Positions 1 through 60,204 of a stretch of DNA of 64,000 nt are shown one piece after another. The notes below the pieces were generated by a model. The model did not search any database and was not told where the DNA came from. It worked only from the letters and a program-made list of their open reading frames with translations. This DNA is from an uncultured Alistipes sp. (GTDB lineage: Bacteria; Bacteroidota; Bacteroidia; Bacteroidales; Rikenellaceae). The number at the start of each line of letters is the position of its first letter. Positions within the stretch are counted from its first letter, which is position 1. The position numbers and the translations under genes were made by a program. The DNA is taken from contig CALUOX010000001.1 in assembly GCA_944322375.1 (NCBI GenBank), positions 5,392 through 69,391 of the forward strand, in the 5' to 3' direction.

Positions 1-763
1 ACTGCCATCCCACATATCCCTTGTAGGAGATGGAGAAACGTTCGGTGGAGCTTCGCTTGGTGGTGACGAGGATCACGCCGTTCGCGGCCCGTGATCCGTA
101 AATGGAGGAGGAAGCGGCATCCTTGAGGATGGAGATGGATTCGATCAGGGAGGGATCGACGCTGTCCAGACTGCCTTCGATTCCGTCGATGAGTACGAGC
201 GGGGCGGTAGAGCTTCCGCCGAAGGAGTTGATGCCGCGGATGCGGATCGATCCGCTGTCGGCACCGGGGGCGCCGGAGGGGGTCGTTACGGTGACGCCGG
301 GCGCCATGCCCTGCAATGCGACCGACGCGGAGACGACGGGCCGTTTGTCGAATGTCGAGGCGTCGATGGTCGATACGGATCCCGTGACGTTGACTTTTTT
401 CTGCGTTCCGTAGCCGACGACTACCACTTCGTCGATCTGTTCATTGTCGCTCTGGAGGGCGATTTCGTAGTAGGTTTTGGAGGTGATCTCTACCGAAGTG
501 TCTTGGTATCCGATATAGGAAATTGCGAGAAATTGGCCTTTAGAGGCGTTTAGAGTGAATTCACCGTCGGCATTGGTTGTTGTTCCCCCCCCCTCGGGTT
601 GGGCGTTCTCCATGACGATTACGGTGGCTCCTACAAGGGGATCTCCGGCCATGTCGGTAACGATTCCGGTTACGGTAACCTTCTGGGCAAATGCGGCTAC
701 ACTGAGACAGGAGAAGAGGACTGCCATGAGCAGTCTCGTTAACGGGTGTAGTGTTCTTTTCAT
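1..763 (-). CDS. SusC/RagA-family TonB-dependent transporter, N-terminal part (runs off left edge)
   Basis: Not in the ORF track; translated by hand from ATG at 763: MKRTLHPLTRLLMAVLFSCLSVAAFAQKVTVTGIVTD...LVGATVIV...ISYIGY...EVVVVGYGTQKK...VLIDG...ILKDAASSSIYGSRAANGVILVTTK, open to base 1. Signal peptide, carboxypeptidase-regulatory-like domain and SusC plug motif. Confidence 0.95.
   Translation of the reverse strand, partial: MKRTLHPLTRLLMAVLFSCLSVAAFAQKVTVTGIVTDMAGDPLVGATVIVMENAQPEGGGTTTNADGEFTLNASKGQFLAISYIGYQDTSVEITSKTYYEIALQSDNEQIDEVVVVGYGTQKKVNVTGSVSTIDASTFDKRPVVSASVALQGMAPGVTVTTPSGAPGADSGSIRIRGINSFGGSSTAPLVLIDGIEGSLDSVDPSLIESISILKDAASSSIYGSRAANGVILVTTKRSSTERFSISYKGYVGWQ
585..593 (-). 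repeat. G9 homopolymer within left susC (codons 57-60, EGGG)
   Basis: Plus strand reads tgtt-CCCCCCCCC-tcgg; the frame is intact at 9 G. Confidence 0.95.
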
Positions 764-1625: not shown

Positions 1626-1766
1626 CCTGCAGTGACGGTCGATAATCCCAACCGACCGGTCTTTTCACCTCCCCCCCCTCTCCAGGATCTTCCTTTTGCG
1701 CCTTTTCGGGTGGAGGGTGTGGTTGAGATGGATTGTCTTCCCTGCGGAGCTGTCTTCTTCCTCGTG

Positions 1767-39075: not shown

Positions 39076-39123
39076 GGGGGGGGGAGAAAAGCGATCGCAA
39101 AGGGCGGTTTTCTCTTTTTTTTG
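39076..39123 (+). terminator. Probable terminator after radical SAM gene (G9-containing arm)
   Basis: G9-agaaaa pairs imperfectly with ttttctc followed by a T run. Confidence 0.5.
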
Positions 39124-49586: not shown

Positions 49587-51191
49587 CTATTGTTTCGGAT
49601 AATTCTCGACGGTCGGATAATCCGTTGGCAGGTTGGTCGTGAAGATGTTCTGCGTATAGGTGTTTCCGAACGGATCCGTGGCACGGACCTCGACGGCGGC
49701 ATCCGCATCCTTGAGCGTATAGTAATAGAGATGATCCGTCTGTTTGGGGTATGTCTTCCGTCCCAGGACACCGGCCAGATATCCGCTCGCCCAGGCATCG
49801 TAGTCCCGGAACCGGCTCATCTCACCCGTCTTGACGCCGTTTTCAAAGACCTCCACGGTCCAGTTCTTTGCGTCGGAGTTCCAGATATTGGCCACGATCT
49901 GGCTGTCGTTGTGATAGATGAACTGCGGCCGGTCATCGTAGGCATAGCGGGTGGCGGCACGGTACAGCCGGATCTGGTACTCCTTGTCGTAACGAACCGA
50001 TTTGTAATACCAGTTGGTGAAGGAGTCGCCGTCGATCTCGAAAACACCGTAGCCGTTGGGCGTACCCTCCGCGCAGATCGTCGAACGCCAGTGTGCACCG
50101 CAGACGGCTCCGTGGTTGTGTTCGTAGATGACGTGCTCGGGATCGGACGTCGCATGGAAATAGTTGCGGTTGCGGTGGCTGTGGCCGCTCATGATATGGG
50201 CTTCGGGGAACTGTTCCAGCAATCCGAGGATCGTTTGCTGTTGCCCGGCCGGAATCATGTCGAGTGTAACGTGCGTGCAGAAGATGACCAGCTTGTCCTT
50301 CTCCGTGAGCCCCAGGTCCTGTTGCAGCCATGCAAGCTGGGCCTCCGTGAATCCCCGCTCGTAGCTCGACGGGTTGTGCGTCTCATCCAACAGCAGAACG
50401 CTGTCCATGCCGACGATATGGACATTCCCCCGTTCGAACGAGTAGTCGCAGGGACCGAAGACCGCTTCGAAGTCCCGGCGGGCGGCAAGGTCATACGTGC
50501 TGCTGCCGGGGCTCAGCTCGGGATGGGTCGCCATGTCGTGATTTCCGATGACCTGGAAAAGCGGCATGCCGATCTGTTCCTCGCGCAGTACCTCGACCAT
50601 CAGCGGCATGATTACCGGCGTCACGTATTTTGTCCGGTTGTTGGAGATGACATCGCCGAGGGTAATCCCGTAAACGGGCGGTGTGCATTCGGCGGCATGT
50701 TCCCGGATATCGGGAACGGACTCGCTGACAAAACGGTTGAATTGTTCTGCGTCGCGTGTTTGGGGATCGGCAAGGCAGAAAAGCGTGAAATGCGTCTCGA
50801 CGGGTTGCCGTGCCCCCAATGTGAAATCGTAACGCTGCCGGTTGTCGGACAGCCGCTGCCAGAAGCAGGGCCGGCCGTCGGTCATGGGAACTTCCCGGTC
50901 GGCCGGAATGCGGTAATAGACATGAAAGGCATCCTTGTTGCGCGCCATCTGATAGATGCCGTTGGCATCGCTTGCGACGCAGGTGAATCCGTCGCTCACG
51001 ACGACCCCTTCGACCGGTGCACCCTCCGTATCGACAATCAATCCGTAGAGGTCGTTGCCCTCCTCGATGGGTGTTCGCAGCGCTGCGGCTTGCAATTGTC
51101 CGGATGTGGAGACGACGTTGCCGTCGCTCGGAGAGGCGGCGGTGAAAAATCCGCAGGCAAGCAGGAAAAGTGTGCAGATCAGCTTTTTCAT
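49587..51191 (-). CDS. Calcineurin-like phosphoesterase (MetallophosN/Metallophos/MetallophosC), paralog A
   Basis: ADPQ, LGD, GNHD, CTH, GHSH, HNHGAVCGAHW, GTPNGY. Confidence 0.9.
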   Translation of the reverse strand: MKKLICTLFLLACGFFTAASPSDGNVVSTSGQLQAAALRTPIEEGNDLYGLIVDTEGAPVEGVVVSDGFTCVASDANGIYQMARNKDAFHVYYRIPADREVPMTDGRPCFWQRLSDNRQRYDFTLGARQPVETHFTLFCLADPQTRDAEQFNRFVSESVPDIREHAAECTPPVYGITLGDVISNNRTKYVTPVIMPLMVEVLREEQIGMPLFQVIGNHDMATHPELSPGSSTYDLAARRDFEAVFGPCDYSFERGNVHIVGMDSVLLLDETHNPSSYERGFTEAQLAWLQQDLGLTEKDKLVIFCTHVTLDMIPAGQQQTILGLLEQFPEAHIMSGHSHRNRNYFHATSDPEHVIYEHNHGAVCGAHWRSTICAEGTPNGYGVFEIDGDSFTNWYYKSVRYDKEYQIRLYRAATRYAYDDRPQFIYHNDSQIVANIWNSDAKNWTVEVFENGVKTGEMSRFRDYDAWASGYLAGVLGRKTYPKQTDHLYYYTLKDADAAVEVRATDPFGNTYTQNIFTTNLPTDYPTVENYPKQ

Positions 51192-51410
51192 GATGCAAAT
51201 GTGTATTGGATGTGTGCTGGATTGAAATCAGGGACGCTTCAGGCGGGATGAACTTGATCGGTGTGACTTCGGGCGGCGGTTTTTACCGCCCGTGTTGTTT
51301 CTGCTCGGCGACATTGCGGGACTCATCCGGAAAAAGCGTCCGTCAGAACAGGAGGAACGAAGGAGCGTGGCCGATTGCGGGCATAAAGGCAACATGTGGA
51401 ATCCTGTTGC

Positions 51411-51491
51411 GATTGTCCCCCCCCCTCGGCTGTCTATAGGGCCGTCCGCTATGATTCGGGCCGTATAGACAGCTCCCGACAGGGGGAAATC
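51411..51491. repeat. Long imperfect intergenic hairpin containing C9
   Basis: gctgtctata/tatagacagc core extended by gattgtcccc...ggggaaatc. Confidence 0.65.
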
Positions 51492-51552
51492 GACTCCTCC
51501 GTTCGCCCTGTCCTGCGGACGTTTTCGGCGATGCCGGCTTGCCGCCGGTCGT

Positions 51553-53169
51553 TTACTGTTGCGGATAGTTCGCTACGGTCGGATAATCCGATTGGGAGTT
51601 GGTCGTGAACGTATCCTGCGTATAGACATTTTTAAACTTGTCCGTTGCACGGATCTCGACGGTGGCGGCATTGACATCCTTGAGCGTATAGTAATAGAGG
51701 TGCTCCGTCTGTTTGGTGTATGACGTGTGGCCCAGAACACCGGCGTGATATCCGCAGGCCCATACATCGTAGTCATCGGCCGCAAAACGTGACATCTGTC
51801 CGGTCTTGATGCCGTTTTCATAGACATCCACCGTCCAGTTTTCATCCGAGTTCCAGATGTTGGCCACGATCTGGTTCGCTTCGTGATAGTAGAATTGCTG
51901 GATGGGGGTGTAGTTGAAGCGCATATTGGCGCGGTACATGCGGATCTGGAAGGTCTTGTCGTAGCGCGTGGGCTTGTAGTACCAGTTGGAGAAGTCGGTG
52001 CCGTTGATGACGAAGACGCCGTATCCGTTGGGTGTTCCTTCCGCACAGATCGTCGATTTCCAGTGTGCACCGCACACGGCACCGTGGTTGTGTTCGTAGA
52101 TGCTGTATTCGGGGTCTGCCGCTACGTGCGTGTAGTTCAGATTGCGGTGGCTGTGTCCGCTCATGATATGGACATTGGGGAACTCCTGCAGCATGCCGAT
52201 TACCTTGCTCTGCTGATCGGCCAGAACCTTGTACATCGGTGCGTGAACGCAGAAGATGATCAGTTTGTCCTTCGATACGAAGCTCAGATCCTGTCGCAAC
52301 CACTCGATTTGATCCTCCGAGAATCCCAGTTCGTAGTTCGAGGGGTTGTGTTCGGGTTTCGACAGCAGGATGTTGTCCATGCCGATGATGTGGGCATTTC
52401 CCCGTTCGAACGAGTAGTCGCAGGGTCCGAACTGCGTCTCGAAGTCGCGACGGGCCGCAAGGTCGTAGGTGCTGCTGCCCTCGCTGATTTTCGGCTTGGT
52501 GGCATTGTCGTGGTTGCCCATAACCTGGAAGAGCGGCATCCCGATTTGGTCTTGCCGCATGAGCCGTGCAATTTGCGGCATGATGGTCGGTGTGACGTAC
52601 TCCTTGCTGTTGTTGGAGACAATGTCGCCGAGTGTGATGCCATAAACGGGAGGCGTACATGCTGCGACATGTTTTTTGATGTCAGGGACGGATTCATCGG
52701 CGAAACGGCCGAGTTCCGTAGCGTCGTTCGTTTGCGGATCGGCGAGACAGAAAAGCGTGAATTGCTTCTCGACAGCCTGTTTCGCCCCTATGGAGAAGTC
52801 ATAACGTTGCTGATCCTTCGAGAGTTTCTTCCAAAAACAGGGCGCGCCGTTGGCCATTTGGACGGGCCGGTCGGCCGGAATACGGTAAAAGACATGGTAG
52901 GCATCCTTGTTCCGTGCCATCTGGTAGACTCCGTTTTCATCGCTTGCGACACAGGTGAAACCGTCGCTGACGACGACCCCTTCAACAGGGGTGCCGGCAT
53001 TGTCGATCACGATTCCGTAGAGGTCATTGCCCGCTTCGATCGGGGTTTTCAACTCCGGTGCGGGTGTATCCGGCGTATCCGGTGTGTCGGGTGTATCCTC
53101 TCCGCCGCTTGAGCATGCGAAAATGAAGAACCCGCAAAGTAATAATAACAGCAAATCAGTCTTTTTCAT
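51553..53169 (-). CDS. Calcineurin-like phosphoesterase lipoprotein, paralog B
   Basis: Lipobox IFAC; DTP-repeat linker; ADPQ, LGD, GNHD, CVH, GHSH. Confidence 0.9.
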   Translation of the reverse strand: MKKTDLLLLLLCGFFIFACSSGGEDTPDTPDTPDTPAPELKTPIEAGNDLYGIVIDNAGTPVEGVVVSDGFTCVASDENGVYQMARNKDAYHVFYRIPADRPVQMANGAPCFWKKLSKDQQRYDFSIGAKQAVEKQFTLFCLADPQTNDATELGRFADESVPDIKKHVAACTPPVYGITLGDIVSNNSKEYVTPTIMPQIARLMRQDQIGMPLFQVMGNHDNATKPKISEGSSTYDLAARRDFETQFGPCDYSFERGNAHIIGMDNILLSKPEHNPSNYELGFSEDQIEWLRQDLSFVSKDKLIIFCVHAPMYKVLADQQSKVIGMLQEFPNVHIMSGHSHRNLNYTHVAADPEYSIYEHNHGAVCGAHWKSTICAEGTPNGYGVFVINGTDFSNWYYKPTRYDKTFQIRMYRANMRFNYTPIQQFYYHEANQIVANIWNSDENWTVDVYENGIKTGQMSRFAADDYDVWACGYHAGVLGHTSYTKQTEHLYYYTLKDVNAATVEIRATDKFKNVYTQDTFTTNSQSDYPTVANYPQQ

Positions 53170-53315
53170 ATTGTTGCGGTGGTAATTGTTGTTTGCCTTT
53201 CCTGTCGTGAATATCTATTCGGGAATAAAAATATAAATTTTCAGTTTAATATTTGCCTTTTCTGTTTTTTTCTTGATATCATTCATGCCGGCACGATTGT
53301 CGGAACATTAACCTA

Positions 53316-53365
53316 ATAAACCTTATCGGCAACTTATACAATCGCCAGTCGTCGATAAGGTTTAT
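53316..53365. repeat. Intergenic hairpin after paralog C
   Basis: Perfect 13-bp inverted repeat ataaaccttatcg/cgataaggtttat. Confidence 0.7.
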
Positions 53366-53382
53366 GCCCATGAGTGCCGGTG

Positions 53383-54975
53383 CTACTCCTTCGGGTAGTT
53401 CGCTACGGTCGGATAATCCGATTGGGAGTTGGTCGTAAACATCGTCTGTTTGTAGGTGTTTCCGAATTTGTCCGTTGCGCGAATCTCGACTGCAGCGTCC
53501 TTATCCTGTAATTTATAATAATACAGATGATCGAACGATCCCGTATAGGTCGTTTTACCGAGTACTCCCGCGTGATAACCGACCGCCCAGACATCGTTGT
53601 CGGTGTAACGTGTCATGTTCCCGGTTTTTGCCCCGTCTTCATAGACCTCGACGCTCCAGTTCCGATTGTCGGAATTCCAGATGTTGGCTATGATCTGATC
53701 GGAATTGTGATAAATGAACTGTTGGATGTCGTCGTAGGCAAAACGTTCATTGGCGCGGTACATGCGGATCTGGAACTCTTTCTCCATGCGGGTCGGCTTG
53801 TAATACCAGTTGACAATCGATGCGCCGTCGATTTCATATACGCCGTAACCATTGGGAGTGCCGTCCTTGTTGACCGTCGAGTTCCACCAGGCACCGCAGG
53901 CCGCTCCATGTACATGTTCGTAAATGTTGCGGCTCGTATAGATATAGTTTTGTCCGTAATGTGTATGTCCCGACATGATGTGGCTTTCGGCAAAACCGTT
54001 GAGCAGATCGCACACCTCGTTCATTCTGTTGTCCGAACTGTTGCGGATCGGGATATGAATGCACAGAATGACCATCTTGCTTTTCGGAACCAGCGCAAGA
54101 TCCTGACGGAGCCACTCTACCTGTGCATCGGTAAAGCCTTTTTCATACGTCGAGGGGTTATGCTTTTCGGTTTTGAGCAGGATGTCGTCCATGCAGACAA
54201 TATGTACATTGCCCCGATCGAACGAATAGTCGCAGGGTCCGAACTTGCTCTCGAATTCACGGCGTCCGCCCAGATCGTAGTTGCTGCTCCCCTCGCTGAT
54301 TTTCGGCTTCATCGAGTTGTCGTGATTGCCCATGACCTGGAAGAGCGGAATGCCCGTATTGTCCCGATGCATGACATTGCCCATTTGTGCCATCAGGGTC
54401 GGAAAGACATTTACCGAGGAGGTATTGAAAAGAATATCGCCGAGTGTAACGCCATACACCGGCGTATTGAATGTCGCACTGTGCTTTTTGATGTCGGGAA
54501 TGGTCTCGTCCTTGAATCGTGCGACGTCGGAATCCGATTGCACCTGCGGATCGGCGACGCAGAAAAGCGTGAATTTTGTCTCGACAGCCTGTTGTGCACT
54601 CAGGATAAAATCGTAACGTTGTTGAGAGGTGGAGAGTTTCTGCCAGAAACAGGGCAGTCCGTTGGCAATGGGTACGGCGCGGTCGGCCGGAATCCGGTAA
54701 AAGACATGGTAGGCATCCTTGTTGCGGGCCATCTGATAAACGCCGTTGGCATCGCTTTTGACGCATGAGAAGCCATCGCTTACGACTACGCCTTCAATGG
54801 GCGATCCGGTATTGTCGATCACGATTCCGTAGAGGTCATTGCCCGCTTCGATCGGTGTTTTCAATTCGGGCGCAGGCGTTTGGGCGCCCGGATCATCGTT
54901 GCCGCTGTCGTTTGAGCAGGCTGCAAAGAAAAGACTTCCTGCAACAAACAGGAACGAACAGATCAGTTTTTTCAT
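53383..54975 (-). CDS. Calcineurin-like phosphoesterase lipoprotein, paralog C
   Basis: Lipobox FAAC; ADPQ, LGD, GNHD, CIH, GHTH. Confidence 0.9.
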   Translation of the reverse strand: MKKLICSFLFVAGSLFFAACSNDSGNDDPGAQTPAPELKTPIEAGNDLYGIVIDNTGSPIEGVVVSDGFSCVKSDANGVYQMARNKDAYHVFYRIPADRAVPIANGLPCFWQKLSTSQQRYDFILSAQQAVETKFTLFCVADPQVQSDSDVARFKDETIPDIKKHSATFNTPVYGVTLGDILFNTSSVNVFPTLMAQMGNVMHRDNTGIPLFQVMGNHDNSMKPKISEGSSNYDLGGRREFESKFGPCDYSFDRGNVHIVCMDDILLKTEKHNPSTYEKGFTDAQVEWLRQDLALVPKSKMVILCIHIPIRNSSDNRMNEVCDLLNGFAESHIMSGHTHYGQNYIYTSRNIYEHVHGAACGAWWNSTVNKDGTPNGYGVYEIDGASIVNWYYKPTRMEKEFQIRMYRANERFAYDDIQQFIYHNSDQIIANIWNSDNRNWSVEVYEDGAKTGNMTRYTDNDVWAVGYHAGVLGKTTYTGSFDHLYYYKLQDKDAAVEIRATDKFGNTYKQTMFTTNSQSDYPTVANYPKE

Positions 54976-55022
54976 CGGTGTTGATTTGTTAAAAAAGAGA
55001 TGTTGCCCCTTTTGCTTTCAAG

Positions 55023-55051
55023 CGGGGACTCCCCCCCCCGAGGAGTCCCCG
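55023..55051. repeat. Hairpin after susD with C9 run
   Basis: cggggactcc/ggagtccccg; no U tract on the coding strand. Confidence 0.7.
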
Positions 55052-55074
55052 TGAAAGCTGAAGATCAGAAAGGG

Positions 55075-56880
55075 TTATTCAATCCACATGTAGTTCTGCT
55101 GCAGATTGGGGTTCTTGTCGATGGCCGTCTTCGGAACAGGGTGGATGTACCGTTGTTCGCTGAAGTGACGTTCGACATTGATCGTCAGACGTCCGTAGGT
55201 GTCAAATTCCAATCCTCGTTTTGCAGATAACGTGATGTATTTTACTCCGGGTTCGGTACCTGCGGCGCCGTCCACGACACAAACATCGTTCGTGCCGTCA
55301 TTGTTCAGATCATAGGCCGTATCCAACGCTCCGATGTAGATGCCGTACCACTGCTTGTTGAGCAGATGTCCCAGATGCCAGCGCATCAGGTCGTCGTAGC
55401 GGCGTCCTTCGAGCAGCAGTTCGATGGCACGTTCGCGACGGATCTCCAGAATATCGCTGTTGGTGATCTTGGGATTGCCGTCCTCTGCCGTATAGTAGTA
55501 ATCCTGCAGGTAAGGATCGATCTGCGTGGGGCGATCGCCGTTCACGCCGGCGCGCTCGCGCAACAGACGGATCGTCTTGTCCCAAACCGTATCGTCGAAT
55601 TCGCCCAATTCGGCCTTTGCTTCGGCGTAGTTGAGCAGGATCTCCGCATAGCGCAGAATAGGCAGCGAATTGGTGCAGATGCCCGAGGCTTCATACGAGT
55701 CGTCATCGACATTGAATTTGATGACCTGATAGCCGGAGTAGCTGACAGAGAAGTTCGGTGCGAAGGGTTTCGATACGCCGCTGACCAGTTTGCGATAGGT
55801 CGGCGAGATAATCGATTGCTGGAGCCGGTAGTCCTTGTTTTCGAAGATCTCCTGATAAGTCCTGCTCTTGTAGTCGGGATCATCCGTGAAACGGGTGCCG
55901 TCGAGATTCAGGTAGGTATAGACGAAATCGGCGTCAAGCGACCATCCCTGGCCCATCGAACCCGAGGTGTAGTACCACGTGATGTTGTGCCGCACGTTGA
56001 GTGCATCGTTGTACTCGCGGGCCCAGATGATCTCCTGTGACAGCACGGATTCCGTCGTAAAGAGCGAACGGTACTGCGATGCGACATTCGCCGACGAGCT
56101 GATGAGCGAATATACACCCGCATTCATCAACTCTTCGCAGGCGTCAGCGGCTTCACGCAGCCACTTGTTGTCCTTGTTGTACTCCGGATCCCAAGCCTTG
56201 CCTGTCGAGGGATCCACCGAGTGGTATTTGCGGTAGGTGCCTTCGAAGAGGCAGATGCGCGATTTGATACCCAGTGCGATCCATTTGTTGATCTTGGTGT
56301 TGTTTACCCATTCACTCGAACTGAAGCAGTGTTCGCAGGCATAATTTAAGTCCTCAAGCACTTTATCCATGACATATTCCCGACTGTCGCGCGGCTTGTA
56401 GAGGGCTTCGGTATCGGTCGAAAGAATGACATAGTCGTACCAAGGCACGGCGCCGAAGGTCTTGACCAGTTCGAAATAGTTCCATGCGCGCCAGAAACGG
56501 GCAGTGCCTTCATAGTGTGCATAGGTCTCTTCACTCAGCCCTTCGGCTTCGTGCATACGCTCAAGGAAGGTGTTGATATAGTAAACGAATTTCCATGCGC
56601 TGTTACCCCAACCTCCTTGCAATGCGGAGTTCCAACTGGGTTGATTCAGGTAATTCGATGTCTCTATTACCTGCACGATGTCGCAGTTCCCGTCCCCAAA
56701 TGTAAGTTCGGTGGCCGAAGGCAGGTAGGAGTTGATGAATCCGTTCGTGTATTGTAGCAGCGAAGATTCGTCTTTGAAGAAGTTGTCCGTACCGATCTCT
56801 TCGATCGGCTGCTTGTCGAGAAAATCTTCGCAGGATGCGAATGTCAGACAAGCAAGTACTGCATATATTGCTTTTTTCAT
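55075..56880 (-). CDS. SusD/RagB family lipoprotein
   Basis: Lipobox FASC-EDFLD; RFWRAW.YF.LVK.FGAVPW, LRYAEILLNYAEA, RRERAIEL..EG.RY.DL.RW, NPNL.QN. Confidence 0.96.
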   Translation of the reverse strand: MKKAIYAVLACLTFASCEDFLDKQPIEEIGTDNFFKDESSLLQYTNGFINSYLPSATELTFGDGNCDIVQVIETSNYLNQPSWNSALQGGWGNSAWKFVYYINTFLERMHEAEGLSEETYAHYEGTARFWRAWNYFELVKTFGAVPWYDYVILSTDTEALYKPRDSREYVMDKVLEDLNYACEHCFSSSEWVNNTKINKWIALGIKSRICLFEGTYRKYHSVDPSTGKAWDPEYNKDNKWLREAADACEELMNAGVYSLISSSANVASQYRSLFTTESVLSQEIIWAREYNDALNVRHNITWYYTSGSMGQGWSLDADFVYTYLNLDGTRFTDDPDYKSRTYQEIFENKDYRLQQSIISPTYRKLVSGVSKPFAPNFSVSYSGYQVIKFNVDDDSYEASGICTNSLPILRYAEILLNYAEAKAELGEFDDTVWDKTIRLLRERAGVNGDRPTQIDPYLQDYYYTAEDGNPKITNSDILEIRRERAIELLLEGRRYDDLMRWHLGHLLNKQWYGIYIGALDTAYDLNNDGTNDVCVVDGAAGTEPGVKYITLSAKRGLEFDTYGRLTINVERHFSEQRYIHPVPKTAIDKNPNLQQNYMWIE

Positions 56881-56892
56881 GGTTGTTCAAGT

Positions 56893-59800
56893 TTAGAAGG
56901 TAATGCTCAGACCGATGCTGTAGGAACGCATGACGGGATAACCGTCGCCATCACCCGAACCGTCGCCGCCCCGCGTGCTCGAGAAATCGGAGTCACCGGC
57001 GTAGATGCCTTCGGGATCGTAGTTCTTGGCGTATTTCTTCAACGGAGTGAAGGTCAGCAGGTTCTCGCCCGAAAGATAGATGCGCAGATTCTGAATGCCG
57101 GCCTTGCTCAACAACTTCTTGGGGAAGGTGTAGTCGATGGTCAGGTTCTTCAGACGCAGGTAGCGGGCATTCTGCAGGTAACGTGTATTAGGCTGAGAAA
57201 GAAGCCCTTTCGACGTCTGGGCTATGTAACCCACCAAACGCGGCCAGTAGGCGTTCGTATTTCCATTCTCGTCGGTGTAGCGGTCGCTGTGCCAAGGCAG
57301 AGAGATACTGTACGGACGTCCGTACTGGCCCCAGAAGTAACCCGACTCCTTTGCGGGATACCAGTCGCGGCGGCCTACGCCCTGCCATACCATCGACAGC
57401 CCGATGCCGTTCCAGTTCACACCGGCCGACAACGAATAGCTGTAACGCGGCGAGGTGTTGCCGATAACCGACAGGTCGCCGTGATCCTCCAAGGTGTTGG
57501 AACCATTGTCAATTCGACCGCTGTTATCGAGATCCTCGTATTTAGGATCACCTTTCTGCCAGATAATGGTGTTGTCGGTAAACTGTGAATAATCGAGCGA
57601 CTGGGCTTCTTCGTTGCTTTGGAAGAGTCCGTTGCAGGTGTAACCCCAGATTTCACCAATCGTCATGCCTTCATAGTAGTTGGTCGAATAGTTCGTCGGA
57701 AGCGTATTGGTCGTTGCCGTGAATTTTGTCACTTTCGTCGTGCTGTCCCAAACCATCGCCTTGATGTTGTAGCTGAAGGGCTTGCCTCCCAACTGGAAGC
57801 TGTCTCGCCACGAAATGCTGGCTTCCCAGCCGTTGGTTCGCATGTCGGCGTAGTTGCCTTTGGGAGCATTGTTGCCGAATACTGCCGGCAACTCCGGACC
57901 CGTTACGATCATGTCCTTCGTATCCTTGCGGTAGATATCGGCGACAAGCAACAGGCGACCGTTCAACATCTCCCAGTCCAGACCGAGGTCATAGGTGCTG
58001 ACCGTCTCCCAGGTCAGGCCATCGGGGGCCAAGGTCGGAACGCCGGCATAAACCAGCGGACTGCCGCCGGTCAGGATACCTGTACTGCGCGTGATGGCGA
58101 TCTTGCTTAGATAAACGTAGTCGTCCACCTGTCCGTTACCGGTCGAACCGAACGAGGCGCGGATCTTCAGGTTGTCCAGCCAGTTTTTGGTGCCCTCCAT
58201 GAATTTCTCCTCGGAGATACGCCAGCCGATCGATGCCGAGGGGAAGAAACCCCAACGCTGATTGCTCGGGAACTTCGAGTTACCGTCATATCGACCGCTC
58301 ACCTCGGCAAGATACCGCCCCTTGTAGCTGTAGTTGACGCGGAAGAAGGCACCCACGAGGCTCGACGAATAGCTGCCGTTGCCCTTTGCCGTGGGAAGTT
58401 CACCGGCCAAAAGATCCAGGGTCGGGTGGTCGGCGTCAATGACATCCGTGTTCTTCGCCATCGTGGTTGTGTAGGTGTAGTCTTCGATGTTCCAGCCGCC
58501 CATTACCTTGAGCCAGTGGTTCTCACCCAGTTTGGGAGTCCAGGTCAGCACGGCGTTGCTGGCTACACGTTCGCGGTTGTAGTAGCGCTCCTCATACCAG
58601 GAGGTAGCGGGTCGCTCGCCCGAAGAGTTGGGACCCGTATAGTACGTATAAGGGATAGCGAGCATGTGGCGTTCCGTGTGGTTGCGGTAGTAGTTTACGT
58701 CCACATCGGCTACCAGCACGTCCTTGATGAAGTCAATCGTGAACTTCGTACGGTTGTTGAGGTCGAACTTGTCGTCTTCACGCCAGGTATGGCCCTCGAC
58801 GAAACCGGCCCAGCCCATGTAAACGGCGGCGTCGGTCCATGTTCCGTCGGGGTTCTTCTCCAGCGTCATCGGGAAGCCCTGATGGTTCATCATACGGGTC
58901 GGCGTAACGGTAAAGGACTGTCCGCCGGTGGTCAGTGTCGGCTGGTGCGAGAACCGGCTCATGAACGACATGGTGTTCTCCACGCTCAGCCATTTGTTGA
59001 CTTTAACGGTTCCCTTTGCCAGTACGTTGTACTGGTTGTAGCGTTCGTCACCGGCATTGTAGATGCCGTCCTGATGGAAGTAACGGCCGGAAAGATAGAA
59101 CGAAGCGCGGTCCGTTCCACCCGTGATGGAGAGGTTGTGCTGGTGACCGGTCGTATAGTTCTTGTAGAAGATGTCGTACCAGTTCGTGTTGCCGAAATAC
59201 TCGTAACGCCCGTCGGCGGGGTTGACGCGCCACTTTTCAAAGGACGGATCGGCATCGCGGCGTACCAGTTCGTTGTACCATGTGCGGTTGAAACGGAATA
59301 CGTTGTTGATGTTTGCGGGATCCGTCTGTTTGCAGTTGATATAGGATTCGAGGTAGGAGTTGGTCCAGTTCAGACCGTTGTCCACGAGTTCCGGAGTGAC
59401 GGTACGCTGGTAGAAGTTGTAGGAGCCGTTGTAGGTAATTTTCAGCTGGCCCTTTTCCGGCTTTTTGGTCGTGATGAGGATCACGCCGAAGGTACCGCGC
59501 GAACCGTAAACGGCCGTCGAGGAGGCATCCTTCAGTACAGTTACGCTCTCGACGTCTTCCGGGTTGACGGTTTCAATACCCATCTCGACGCCATCGACGA
59601 GAACGAGTGTCGAACCGCCCGAACCGATCGAGTTCGTGACGCCTCGGATGCGGAGCGTACCGCCGCGAGTCGGTTTACCGTCGGAGAAGGTAACGGTCAG
59701 GCCCGGAATCGATCCTTGCAGGGAACGGGTTACGTTCTGGTAGGAACCGAGGCGGTCTTCGATATCTTTGCTTGTGATTTGCTCTACGGCGCCGACGATG

Positions 59801-60204
59801 TCGCGTTTTTTCTGTACGCCGTAACCTACGACGACGATCTCTTCAAGGCTGGTGTTGTCCTCTTCGAGGGTGACGTTGATTGTGGATTGGTTGTTGACGG
59901 GAACGAGTTGGGTCTTGTAGCCGATGAAGCTGAAATTCAGAGATTCCTTGCTGGAAACGGAGATTGTGTAGTGACCCTCGATATCGGTGGTGGTACCGCG
60001 CGACGTGTCGGGGATTGTGATTGCTGCACCTACGATAGGATTGCCGCTCTTGTCTTTAACGGTACCCGAGACGGTATTCCCCCCCCCTTGTGCCATAACG
60101 GAGGTTGTAAGGGCCGTCAAAACAAGCGCAACCATGAAGAATCCGATACGCCGGCAATGGTCTGCGAGCGAACGGCGTCCTCTCTGAGTAGAACGTTGTT
60201 TCAT
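56893..60204 (-). CDS. SusC/RagA family TonB-dependent transporter
   Basis: Start MKQRSTQ; VSGTVKD, VVVGYGVQKK, LKDASSTAVYGSRGTFGVILITTK, SGRYDGNSKF, RWGFFPS; ends YPVMRSYSIGLSITF. Confidence 0.97.
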   Translation of the reverse strand: MKQRSTQRGRRSLADHCRRIGFFMVALVLTALTTSVMAQGGGNTVSGTVKDKSGNPIVGAAITIPDTSRGTTTDIEGHYTISVSSKESLNFSFIGYKTQLVPVNNQSTINVTLEEDNTSLEEIVVVGYGVQKKRDIVGAVEQITSKDIEDRLGSYQNVTRSLQGSIPGLTVTFSDGKPTRGGTLRIRGVTNSIGSGGSTLVLVDGVEMGIETVNPEDVESVTVLKDASSTAVYGSRGTFGVILITTKKPEKGQLKITYNGSYNFYQRTVTPELVDNGLNWTNSYLESYINCKQTDPANINNVFRFNRTWYNELVRRDADPSFEKWRVNPADGRYEYFGNTNWYDIFYKNYTTGHQHNLSITGGTDRASFYLSGRYFHQDGIYNAGDERYNQYNVLAKGTVKVNKWLSVENTMSFMSRFSHQPTLTTGGQSFTVTPTRMMNHQGFPMTLEKNPDGTWTDAAVYMGWAGFVEGHTWREDDKFDLNNRTKFTIDFIKDVLVADVDVNYYRNHTERHMLAIPYTYYTGPNSSGERPATSWYEERYYNRERVASNAVLTWTPKLGENHWLKVMGGWNIEDYTYTTTMAKNTDVIDADHPTLDLLAGELPTAKGNGSYSSSLVGAFFRVNYSYKGRYLAEVSGRYDGNSKFPSNQRWGFFPSASIGWRISEEKFMEGTKNWLDNLKIRASFGSTGNGQVDDYVYLSKIAITRSTGILTGGSPLVYAGVPTLAPDGLTWETVSTYDLGLDWEMLNGRLLLVADIYRKDTKDMIVTGPELPAVFGNNAPKGNYADMRTNGWEASISWRDSFQLGGKPFSYNIKAMVWDSTTKVTKFTATTNTLPTNYSTNYYEGMTIGEIWGYTCNGLFQSNEEAQSLDYSQFTDNTIIWQKGDPKYEDLDNSGRIDNGSNTLEDHGDLSVIGNTSPRYSYSLSAGVNWNGIGLSMVWQGVGRRDWYPAKESGYFWGQYGRPYSISLPWHSDRYTDENGNTNAYWPRLVGYIAQTSKGLLSQPNTRYLQNARYLRLKNLTIDYTFPKKLLSKAGIQNLRIYLSGENLLTFTPLKKYAKNYDPEGIYAGDSDFSSTRGGDGSGDGDGYPVMRSYSIGLSITF
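60079..60087 (-). repeat. G9 homopolymer within right susC (codons 40-42, AQ-GGG)
   Basis: Plus strand attCCCCCCCCCttg; frame intact at 9 G. Confidence 0.95.

Follow-up and report, generated by a model that had tools for sequence, protein, structure and literature searches.

A poly-G tract near the 5′ end of an Alistipes susC gene is a probable slipped-strand ON/OFF switch

Introduction

The haemoglobin receptors HmbR and HpuAB of Neisseria meningitidis are TonB-dependent outer-membrane proteins that are toggled ON and OFF by a poly-G tract within the open reading frame (ORF; PMC3786947). Poly-C/G tracts also control surface structures in Campylobacter jejuni (PMC3401435; PMC8355987), where the modal length is nine and where short tracts mutate mainly by insertion and long ones by deletion (Bayliss et al. 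2012, PMC3401435). Phase variation in the gut Bacteroidales has so far been described as DNA inversions, and the variation of SusC/SusD in Bacteroides has been attributed to an invertase, that is to promoter inversion by a site-specific recombinase acting between inverted repeats (2009 work, cited in PMC11868660). Here we consider a stretch of 64,000 nucleotides, referred to below as the window, from an uncultured Alistipes sp. of the chicken gut (GCA_944322375.1, contig CALUOX010000001.1; G000:C1:5392-69391 in assembly coordinates), and in particular a run of nine G near the start of the susC gene at its left edge. Because the tract at this site is 8 to 12 G long in close relatives, we propose that it is very likely a slippage-driven ON/OFF switch of a SusC transporter.

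The mechanism is a classical one, known from pathogens, and we found no report of poly-G or other homopolymer phase variation in Alistipes, in Bacteroidales or in SusC, in a literature search that covered subscription journals thinly; there is thus no report that we could find for this gut commensal group. A 2025 review mentions no variation of SusC/SusD other than the invertase-driven kind and raises the question of why phase variation driven by repeats at multiple loci appears confined to pathogens (PMC11868660). Within the Bacteroidota, the FSD (Fibrobacter-succinogenes-domain) adhesin genes of Ornithobacterium hominis are credited with a "putative phase variation mechanism" (PMC13183296).

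An in-frame G9 tract in the focal susC gene

The focal gene lies on the minus strand and starts with an ATG at position 763. Its first 254 codons (2..763) fall within the window, where the ORF begins MKRTLHPLTRLLMAVLFSCLSVAAFAQK, reads VMENAQPEGGGTTTNADGEF over the tract and leaves through the left edge. The complete gene (G000:C1:3065-6154) encodes a protein of 1029 amino acids (P0002) that passes the SusC/RagA model TIGR04056 with 944.8 bits against a cut-off of 368, over model positions 2-981 (C1:3068-6067), and near-identical homologs of the protein carry PF13715, PF07715 and PF00593. The next gene downstream belongs to the SusD family (PF07980, 3.6e-46, together with PF14322). Residues 1-26 (686..763, minus strand) form a predicted signal peptide, read from the translation, which ends ..VAAFA before QK at the presumed cleavage site.

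The tract appears on the plus strand as C9, CCCCCCCCC, at 585-593 and on the minus strand as G9. It occupies the third position of codon 57 (GAG), all of codons 58 and 59 and the first two positions of codon 60 (GGA), where the protein reads P56-E57-G58-G59-G60. The initial annotation, which had pointed to an in-frame G9 in codons 57-60 (PEGGG) at this place, is therefore borne out by direct reading of the sequence and frame, and its remark that glycine codons elsewhere in the window are mostly GGC, GGA or GGT also holds, since GGG accounts for 13% of glycine codons genome-wide. The tract is situated about 30 codons past the predicted signal peptide, within a loop of the N-terminal CarboxypepD_reg-like domain. 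Contingency loci are recognised in part by a homopolymer of about 7 bases or more in the 5′ portion of the coding sequence, and here we see nine G close to the start of a gene of 1029 codons.

Changes in tract length are predicted to have severe consequences for the product. In modelled variants of the focal gene, translation stops after 70 codons with G8, after 67 with G10 and after 71 with G11, with G12 remaining open, and in those of the modelled variants that are closed 66-71 residues precede the stop. G9 and G12 are thus ON states and G7, G8, G10 and G11 are OFF states, and the gain or loss of one G, as at other contingency loci, would be enough to lose the protein. The focal susC is caught ON in this assembly.

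An invertible promoter would be expected to show flanking inverted repeats and a nearby recombinase, and this locus does not support one. Upstream of the focal susC there are only weak long pairs of inverted repeats, with 71-75% complementarity, and no recombinase lies beside the gene; the upstream genes encode a PHP-domain protein, a GH57 protein, a glycosyltransferase and a glycogen debranching enzyme. The earlier suggestion that poly-G slippage operates in this lineage rather than DNA inversion is borne out in part, our verdict extending to the focal locus only.

Length alleles at the focal site in close relatives

The expectation that tract length would differ across strains and relatives is confirmed for a sister allele and for sister species, in which public assemblies have G8, G9, G10, G11 or G12 at the focal site between identical flanks. 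The sister allele is represented by P0004, which is 93% identical to the focal protein and whose cluster (at 90%) includes the window allele from residue 13 onwards (P0125). This cluster holds full-length forms of 1029 amino acids, assigned to G9 from the in-frame PEGGG of the protein, as well as products of 67, 70 and 71 residues. At the DNA level, and with the flanks unchanged, G10 recurs in six independent samples from several studies (L051-L056; the 67-residue P0124), G11 is found in L057 (71 residues) and G8 in L058 (70 residues). One member of the cluster, P0132, has the N-terminus of the window allele to about residue 25 and the sister allele beyond, and from this chimeric structure we conclude that the two alleles recombine and probably belong to one species.

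In the sister species, at 85% identity, the gene is frameshifted by G10 in L047 and L059-L062 and is in frame with G12, encoding an extra glycine, in L048. A truncated gene call of 877 amino acids is present in 2033 blocks, and five of these places have either G10 or G9 with an adjacent base missing. A flank-anchored scan, requiring 35 exactly matching flank bases, recovered this site from 46 human-gut metagenome contigs. The commonest allele is G9 followed by A (29 contigs, in frame), and the same sequence with G10 (9 contigs) or G11 (1 contig) is out of frame. Three contigs have G10 through an A>G change and are in frame, and four have a form derived from it by loss of one base, which is out of frame, so that overall 32 of the 46 are in frame and 14 are not. 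The A-to-G change of the base after the tract marks a sub-lineage (L069, L071, L096; L077, L080, L084, L097) in which G10 is in frame and G9 is out, and the ON length itself therefore evolves. A run of A8, taken as a control, had the same length in 10 sister-species loci; none of the other tracts in the 46 loci was common to at least five of them, which left no second tract for a comparison of lengths.

Variation extends to an Alistipes timonensis-type ortholog, at 66% identity, which has G8 in one metagenome contig (L049) and G10 in a record of assembly GCA_015555395.1 (L050), where the truncated product of 967 amino acids is labelled Alistipes timonensis by NCBI; the G9 form is deduced from an in-frame protein of 1037 amino acids (P0025). 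In a nucleotide search of 30 relatives the matches start past the tract region, and a protein-anchored search was used for comparison across species. It shows G9 kept at the focal site in two species at 80-81% identity and, in species beyond these, a GGG encoded by mixed codons or no such motif. An ortholog at 84% identity with an apparent G4 (L044) was discarded because it comes from a 1.19x assembly with other collapsed homopolymers.

In the OFF alleles the rest of the ORF is otherwise intact. Near-identical sequences that differ in tract length, occur in both frames and retain the ORF are a further mark of a contingency locus, and they are found for the sister allele, for sister species and for another susC of this genome (on C24, below), though not for the window's exact allele. 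It might be argued from this that the tract merely encodes a static Gly-Gly-Gly loop that is stable in this strain, and that variation elsewhere does not apply to the window allele, which together with a strain diverged by 4% is seen as G9 only. There are, however, few copies of the window allele on record, the sister allele of the same cluster shows G8, G10 and G11 between near-identical flanks, and another susC and a lipoprotein gene of the same genome are themselves out of frame at their tracts. We therefore regard a static loop as very unlikely.

G/C tracts across the genome

The focal assembly comprises 2.52 Mb in 139 contigs, with 56.4% GC. Its G/C runs have a bimodal distribution of lengths (116 of length 6, 21 of 7, 44 of 8, 81 of 9 and 3 of 10), and its A/T runs decay smoothly with length. 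Extrapolation of the decay from lengths 3-6 predicts 0.44 runs of nine where 81 are observed, and a chance origin of the G9 tracts is excluded. Runs of G at contig ends that resemble artefacts of two-colour chemistry, at the start of C22 (G13; C22:1-41), the end of C72 (G14; C72:14425-14438) and the start of C94 (C94:1-80), were left out of all counts, and so was other G-rich sequence there; genuine poly-G artefacts occur at contig ends only.

The existence of these terminal runs, together with the collapsed homopolymers of the 1.19x relative mentioned above and the mostly low coverage of those OFF calls for which coverage is stated, could suggest that the tract or its length alleles are errors of sequencing or assembly, arising from two-colour poly-G or from homopolymer miscalls. 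The focal tract is nevertheless internal and in frame, and is conserved between species and in independently made assemblies, two of which are single-contig genomes; A/T runs are normal; and G10 recurs in the six samples from several studies and in a deposited NCBI assembly record. We give an artefact almost no credence.

The placement of tracts was assessed with a crude self-trained gene caller followed by inspection of three frames by eye. As the caller shortens genes at their 5′ ends and overlooks some small ones (for example those that begin 17 nt past the tracts at C64:4730 and C39:13271), the counts of intergenic and coding tracts are approximate. Among 124 non-terminal tracts of G/C 8-10, about 100 are intergenic and 16 are coding, and 14 of the 16 coding tracts lie within the first 75 or so codons. 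Seven of the genes concerned are susC genes (C1:5976, which is the focal one, C1:65470, C3:38026, C21:10818, C22:6424, C24:22619 and C51:5028) and one encodes a TonB-dependent receptor that is not a SusC (C10:33441). The other six encode lipoproteins: three with Fib_succ_major, one with Lcl_C/adhesion, one metallophosphoesterase just upstream of a susC and one without a family, with Ig-like domains also present among them. The genome has 17 SusC/RagA genes above the TIGR04056 cut-off, so that a 5′ tract is present in 7 of 17 susC genes against 7 of 1857 other genes (Fisher p = 4e-12). The enrichment of poly-G in susC 5′ ends that would be expected from the initial annotation is thus evident genome-wide, and the tracts are both over-represented and concentrated in genes for surface structures, as is usual for contingency loci.

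A less specific explanation is that G9 is a tolerated mutational hot spot, in which a bias, visible in all the Alistipes genomes examined, drives G runs toward nine bases wherever this is not lethal and OFF alleles represent ordinary loss in dispensable uptake genes, with no bet-hedging. Among the rival explanations this neutral hot spot is the serious one, since the tracts are intergenic for the most part; they occur in all kinds of intergenic setting, with a short flank preference and no longer motif, the sharp mode at G9 fits a mutational attractor (PMC3401435), and the susC genes, 17 in number, are individually dispensable. Tolerance, however, predicts a spread along the gene, whereas the coding tracts are kept to the first 75 or so of about 1000 codons. 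The tracts also lie at different positions in paralogs, which implies independent origins, the focal G9 is kept in species that are 80-85% identical despite the availability of synonymous glycine codons and the low use of GGG, and intact ORFs stand behind OFF alleles in thousands of assemblies. Taking both sides together, we consider the neutral hot spot unlikely and favour the slippage switch for the coding tracts.

The flank preference consists of G-A before the tract and A-R after it (G-A-[G9]-A-R); we looked for a longer motif and found none beyond these bases. A repeated mobile element can be ruled out as the source of the tracts, because the preference is too short. The surroundings of the intergenic tracts were also searched for a conserved small ORF or leader peptide, and no common motif was found among 133 candidate peptides. 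Many intergenic tracts lie 4-45 nt past a stop codon, or just past a terminator hairpin and T-run (C23:20803, C75:5797), and many are followed by purine-rich low-complexity sequence. One G9 is situated in the short ftsQ-ftsA spacer, about 59 nt before the ftsA start (G000:C4:26073-26081, L027), a housekeeping context that departs from the surface-gene pattern.

Of the 70 intergenic tracts between co-directional genes, 56 have G on the sense strand and 14 on the other, which hints at an effect at the RNA level or linked to transcription. Long homopolymers can cause transcriptional slippage in bacteria, and one could imagine that slippage by RNA polymerase or the ribosome allows OFF alleles to leak SusC, or ON alleles to yield a short N-terminal peptide, so that the tract tunes the level of expression. 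DNA length alleles are, however, directly shown and suffice for ON/OFF control, and there is no RNA run among the runs that hold the focal locus. Expression-level slippage therefore seems to us highly improbable as the explanation of the focal tract.

Other switch candidates in the genome and the genus

Two of the remaining tract-bearing genes of this genome are caught in the OFF state. The C24 susC (G000:C24:22619-22626, L018) has G8 right after the signal peptide and is out of frame, with a stop two codons past the tract; its counterpart L066, 98.9% identical over 3168 nt, has G9 and encodes the full 1094 amino acids, with 40 cluster members. A lipoprotein gene on C2 with Big_7 and Fib_succ_major domains (G000:C2:59080-59089, L026) has C10 eight codons past the lipobox Cys and is out of frame, and C9 would bring it back into frame. 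Orthologs of the C3 susC differ in frame too, one species having the gene out of frame, at G9, and another in frame. In the C51 susC (G000:C51:5021-5044, L020) the tract forms the loop of a short perfect inverted repeat, TCTTACT-C10-AGTAAGA, in codons 5-9. The two tracts deep within coding sequence (G000:C10:14717-14725, L031, and G000:C20:25440-25448, L030) are both in frame, the former near codon 690 of a gene for a Y_Y_Y/Reg_prop regulator that adjoins a susC and the latter near codon 430 of a sulfatase gene.

Tracts of G9 or longer are present in all 36 of the other Alistipes species genomes sampled, with up to about 170 matches each, and 24 other families of the order, also sampled, mostly have 0-5 such tracts or contig-end artefacts only. 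Exact run lengths were counted in five relatives, two of them single-contig genomes, in addition to the focal genome. For G7, G8, G9 and G10 respectively we find 27, 40, 124 and 2 in G004; 3, 16, 100 and 9 in G011; 6, 7, 65 and 12 in G043; 9, 7, 54 and 1 in G035; and 67, 48, 159 and 6 in G046. As G9 is the mode in all six genomes, the mode at nine is biological. The closed genome G004 has 44 susC genes, of which at least 7 contain a G/C tract of 8-9 within about 130 nt of the mature N-terminus.

Other tracts in the window

The window has six G/C runs of 8 bases or more, and 11 G8 words against 2.1 in shuffled sequence. A second SusC/RagA gene, of 1103 amino acids (56893..60204, minus strand, ATG at 60204; TIGR04056 838 bits), is followed by a susD identified by Pfam (55075-56880) and has its own in-frame G9 at 60079..60087 (minus strand), directly after the signal peptide (..SVMAQ-GGG-NTVSG). 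The initial annotation had noted this tract at about 60 kb in what it called an unrelated susC; the tract is there, but the two proteins are paralogs at 31-32% identity, with tracts at non-homologous positions. A group of susC genes with a similar junction (..SAQGGGKAVSG..) includes an ON form (P0183, 1636 cluster members) and a G10 OFF form (P0193, L065, 1452 members), and it resembles the second window susC at the signal-peptide junction.

The other four runs are intergenic. A G8 at 1671..1678 (minus strand) follows the stop codon of the PHP-domain gene upstream by 88 nt and precedes the start of the focal susC by about 900 nt. Run X1 otherwise matches the window exactly; its assembly graph breaks precisely at this G8, one contig ending at 1681 and the next starting at 1659, and the break (window 1659-1681) is a possible hint of mixed tract lengths in that sample. 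G9 tracts are found at 39076..39084 (plus strand), at 51417..51425 (minus strand), in the right-hand susC/susD locus, where it lies upstream of a gene for a metallophosphoesterase lipoprotein, and at 55031..55039 (minus strand), between susD and the next gene, where the G9 forms the loop of a short hairpin, GGGGACT..AGTCCCC (inverted repeat in window 55020-55050). In the right-hand locus (window 49587-60204) two lipoprotein genes that encode paralogous metallophosphoesterases (53383-54975 and 49587-51191) come after the susC/susD pair, and another member of this family, on contig C59, has a 5′ G9 and lies upstream of another susC.

Discussion

At the level of populations, the proposal of a slipped-strand ON/OFF switch is supported by the frame effects of length change, by the natural alleles from G8 to G12, by the intact ORFs of OFF alleles and by the 5′ enrichment of tracts in susC and lipoprotein genes. 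In the model that we favour, G9 would be a hypermutable simple-sequence repeat at which the nascent and template strands misalign in replication, one G being gained or lost. With G9 or G12 the ribosome would pass the signal peptide, the Gly-Gly-Gly and then the SusC barrel, and the gene would be ON; with G8, G10 or G11 it would meet a stop after 67-71 codons, no transporter would be made, and expression of the downstream susD would probably be lowered too through polarity. Because a later slip would restore the frame, the population should always be a mix of cells with and without this importer. The focal tract would then be one of about 14 putative 5′ coding switches in the genome, in 8 TonB-dependent receptors and 6 surface lipoproteins. 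We infer the slippage mechanism, the switching rate, the reversibility within a lineage, the polarity on susD and any selective benefit; candidate benefits might be escape from phage, antibody or toxin that use SusC, or sparing the cost of an unused uptake system.

Several observations weigh against this model. All 22 runs consist of assembled contigs, in which minority alleles within a sample or clone are not countable. The window's exact allele is seen only as G9, in the window itself, in run X1 and in a strain diverged by 4% in run X5; four runs were aligned as contigs, and in X1 and X5 the focal G9 is bridged without gaps. Metagenome contigs were also scanned with a pattern for the window's own allele in which tract length could vary, and this gave 0 matches. 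The runs that hold the window are chicken gut, bird, other gut and air metagenomes. Of the 46 contigs from the sister-species scan, the four with the highest coverage stated (8-48x) all have G9, and those OFF contigs for which coverage is stated have 2-6x, so some of these low-coverage calls could be errors, although the G10 OFF allele also comes from long contigs (266-452 kb, with 14x stated for L062) and from a deposited NCBI assembly record. MutS (MutS1) and MutL are intact in the focal genome, so any instability does not come from missing mismatch repair. Finally, about 80% of the tracts in the genome are intergenic, including 24 between convergent genes and the one in the ftsQ-ftsA spacer; a gene switch of this kind thus does not account for most of the tracts, and mutational bias could by itself produce G9 runs.

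A broader possibility is that there is an Alistipes-wide G9 system, in which a dedicated process, such as a lineage-specific polymerase or repair bias or an RNA or transcription signal, makes the tracts and uses them to modulate many operons. Each of the six genomes counted has roughly 55 to 160 exact-G9 tracts, in the main intergenic with G on the sense strand, frequently close behind a stop codon or terminator and ahead of purine-rich sequence, and the coding switches may be only the visible part of such a distinct system, but as matters stand we consider this doubtful.

A major commensal genus thus has a poly-G repertoire like that of Campylobacter, directed at nutrient importers and surface lipoproteins, and both ON and OFF alleles are common across thousands of gut metagenomes in public collections. 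If the slippage switch operates as proposed, many of the Alistipes susC genes that are annotated as pseudogenes or truncated genes would really be switched-off genes, and strain-level glycan use and phage sensitivity could shift without the gain or loss of genes. The ON/OFF state of a tract, read directly from metagenomes, could serve to mark selection in the gut, and Alistipes would provide an organism proficient in mismatch repair for studying what makes G tracts settle at nine.

Ornithobacterium hominis is in a different order from Alistipes. The FSD adhesins resemble the present case in coming from the Bacteroidota and in their domain, Fib_succ_major being found in three of the six tract-bearing lipoproteins of the focal genome, and they differ in that no SusC is involved. 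The resemblance to the contingency loci of C. jejuni lies in the many G/C tracts with a mode of nine, both intragenic and intergenic (PMC3401435; review PMC8355987). In contrast to C. jejuni, the Alistipes tracts of exactly nine number, as given above, roughly 55 to 160 per genome and are mostly intergenic with G on the sense strand, their targets are SusC-type transporters and Fib_succ_major/Ig-like lipoproteins, and MutS and MutL are intact.

HmbR and HpuAB share with the focal gene a TonB-dependent receptor, a poly-G tract inside the ORF and the presence of ON and OFF alleles among natural isolates (PMC3786947). They belong to another phylum, to the iron/haem uptake class and to a pathogen, whereas the focal protein is of the SusC/RagA glycan type, paired with SusD, in a gut commensal; for the meningococcal receptors switching rates and phenotypes have been measured, whereas the focal switch is a putative one. 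The Bacteroides inverton, as relayed in the review, concerns the same protein family in the same order, Bacteroidales, and the same stochastic ON/OFF control of a SusC/SusD pair. Unlike the inverton, the putative switch described here lies inside the coding sequence and would act on the reading frame.

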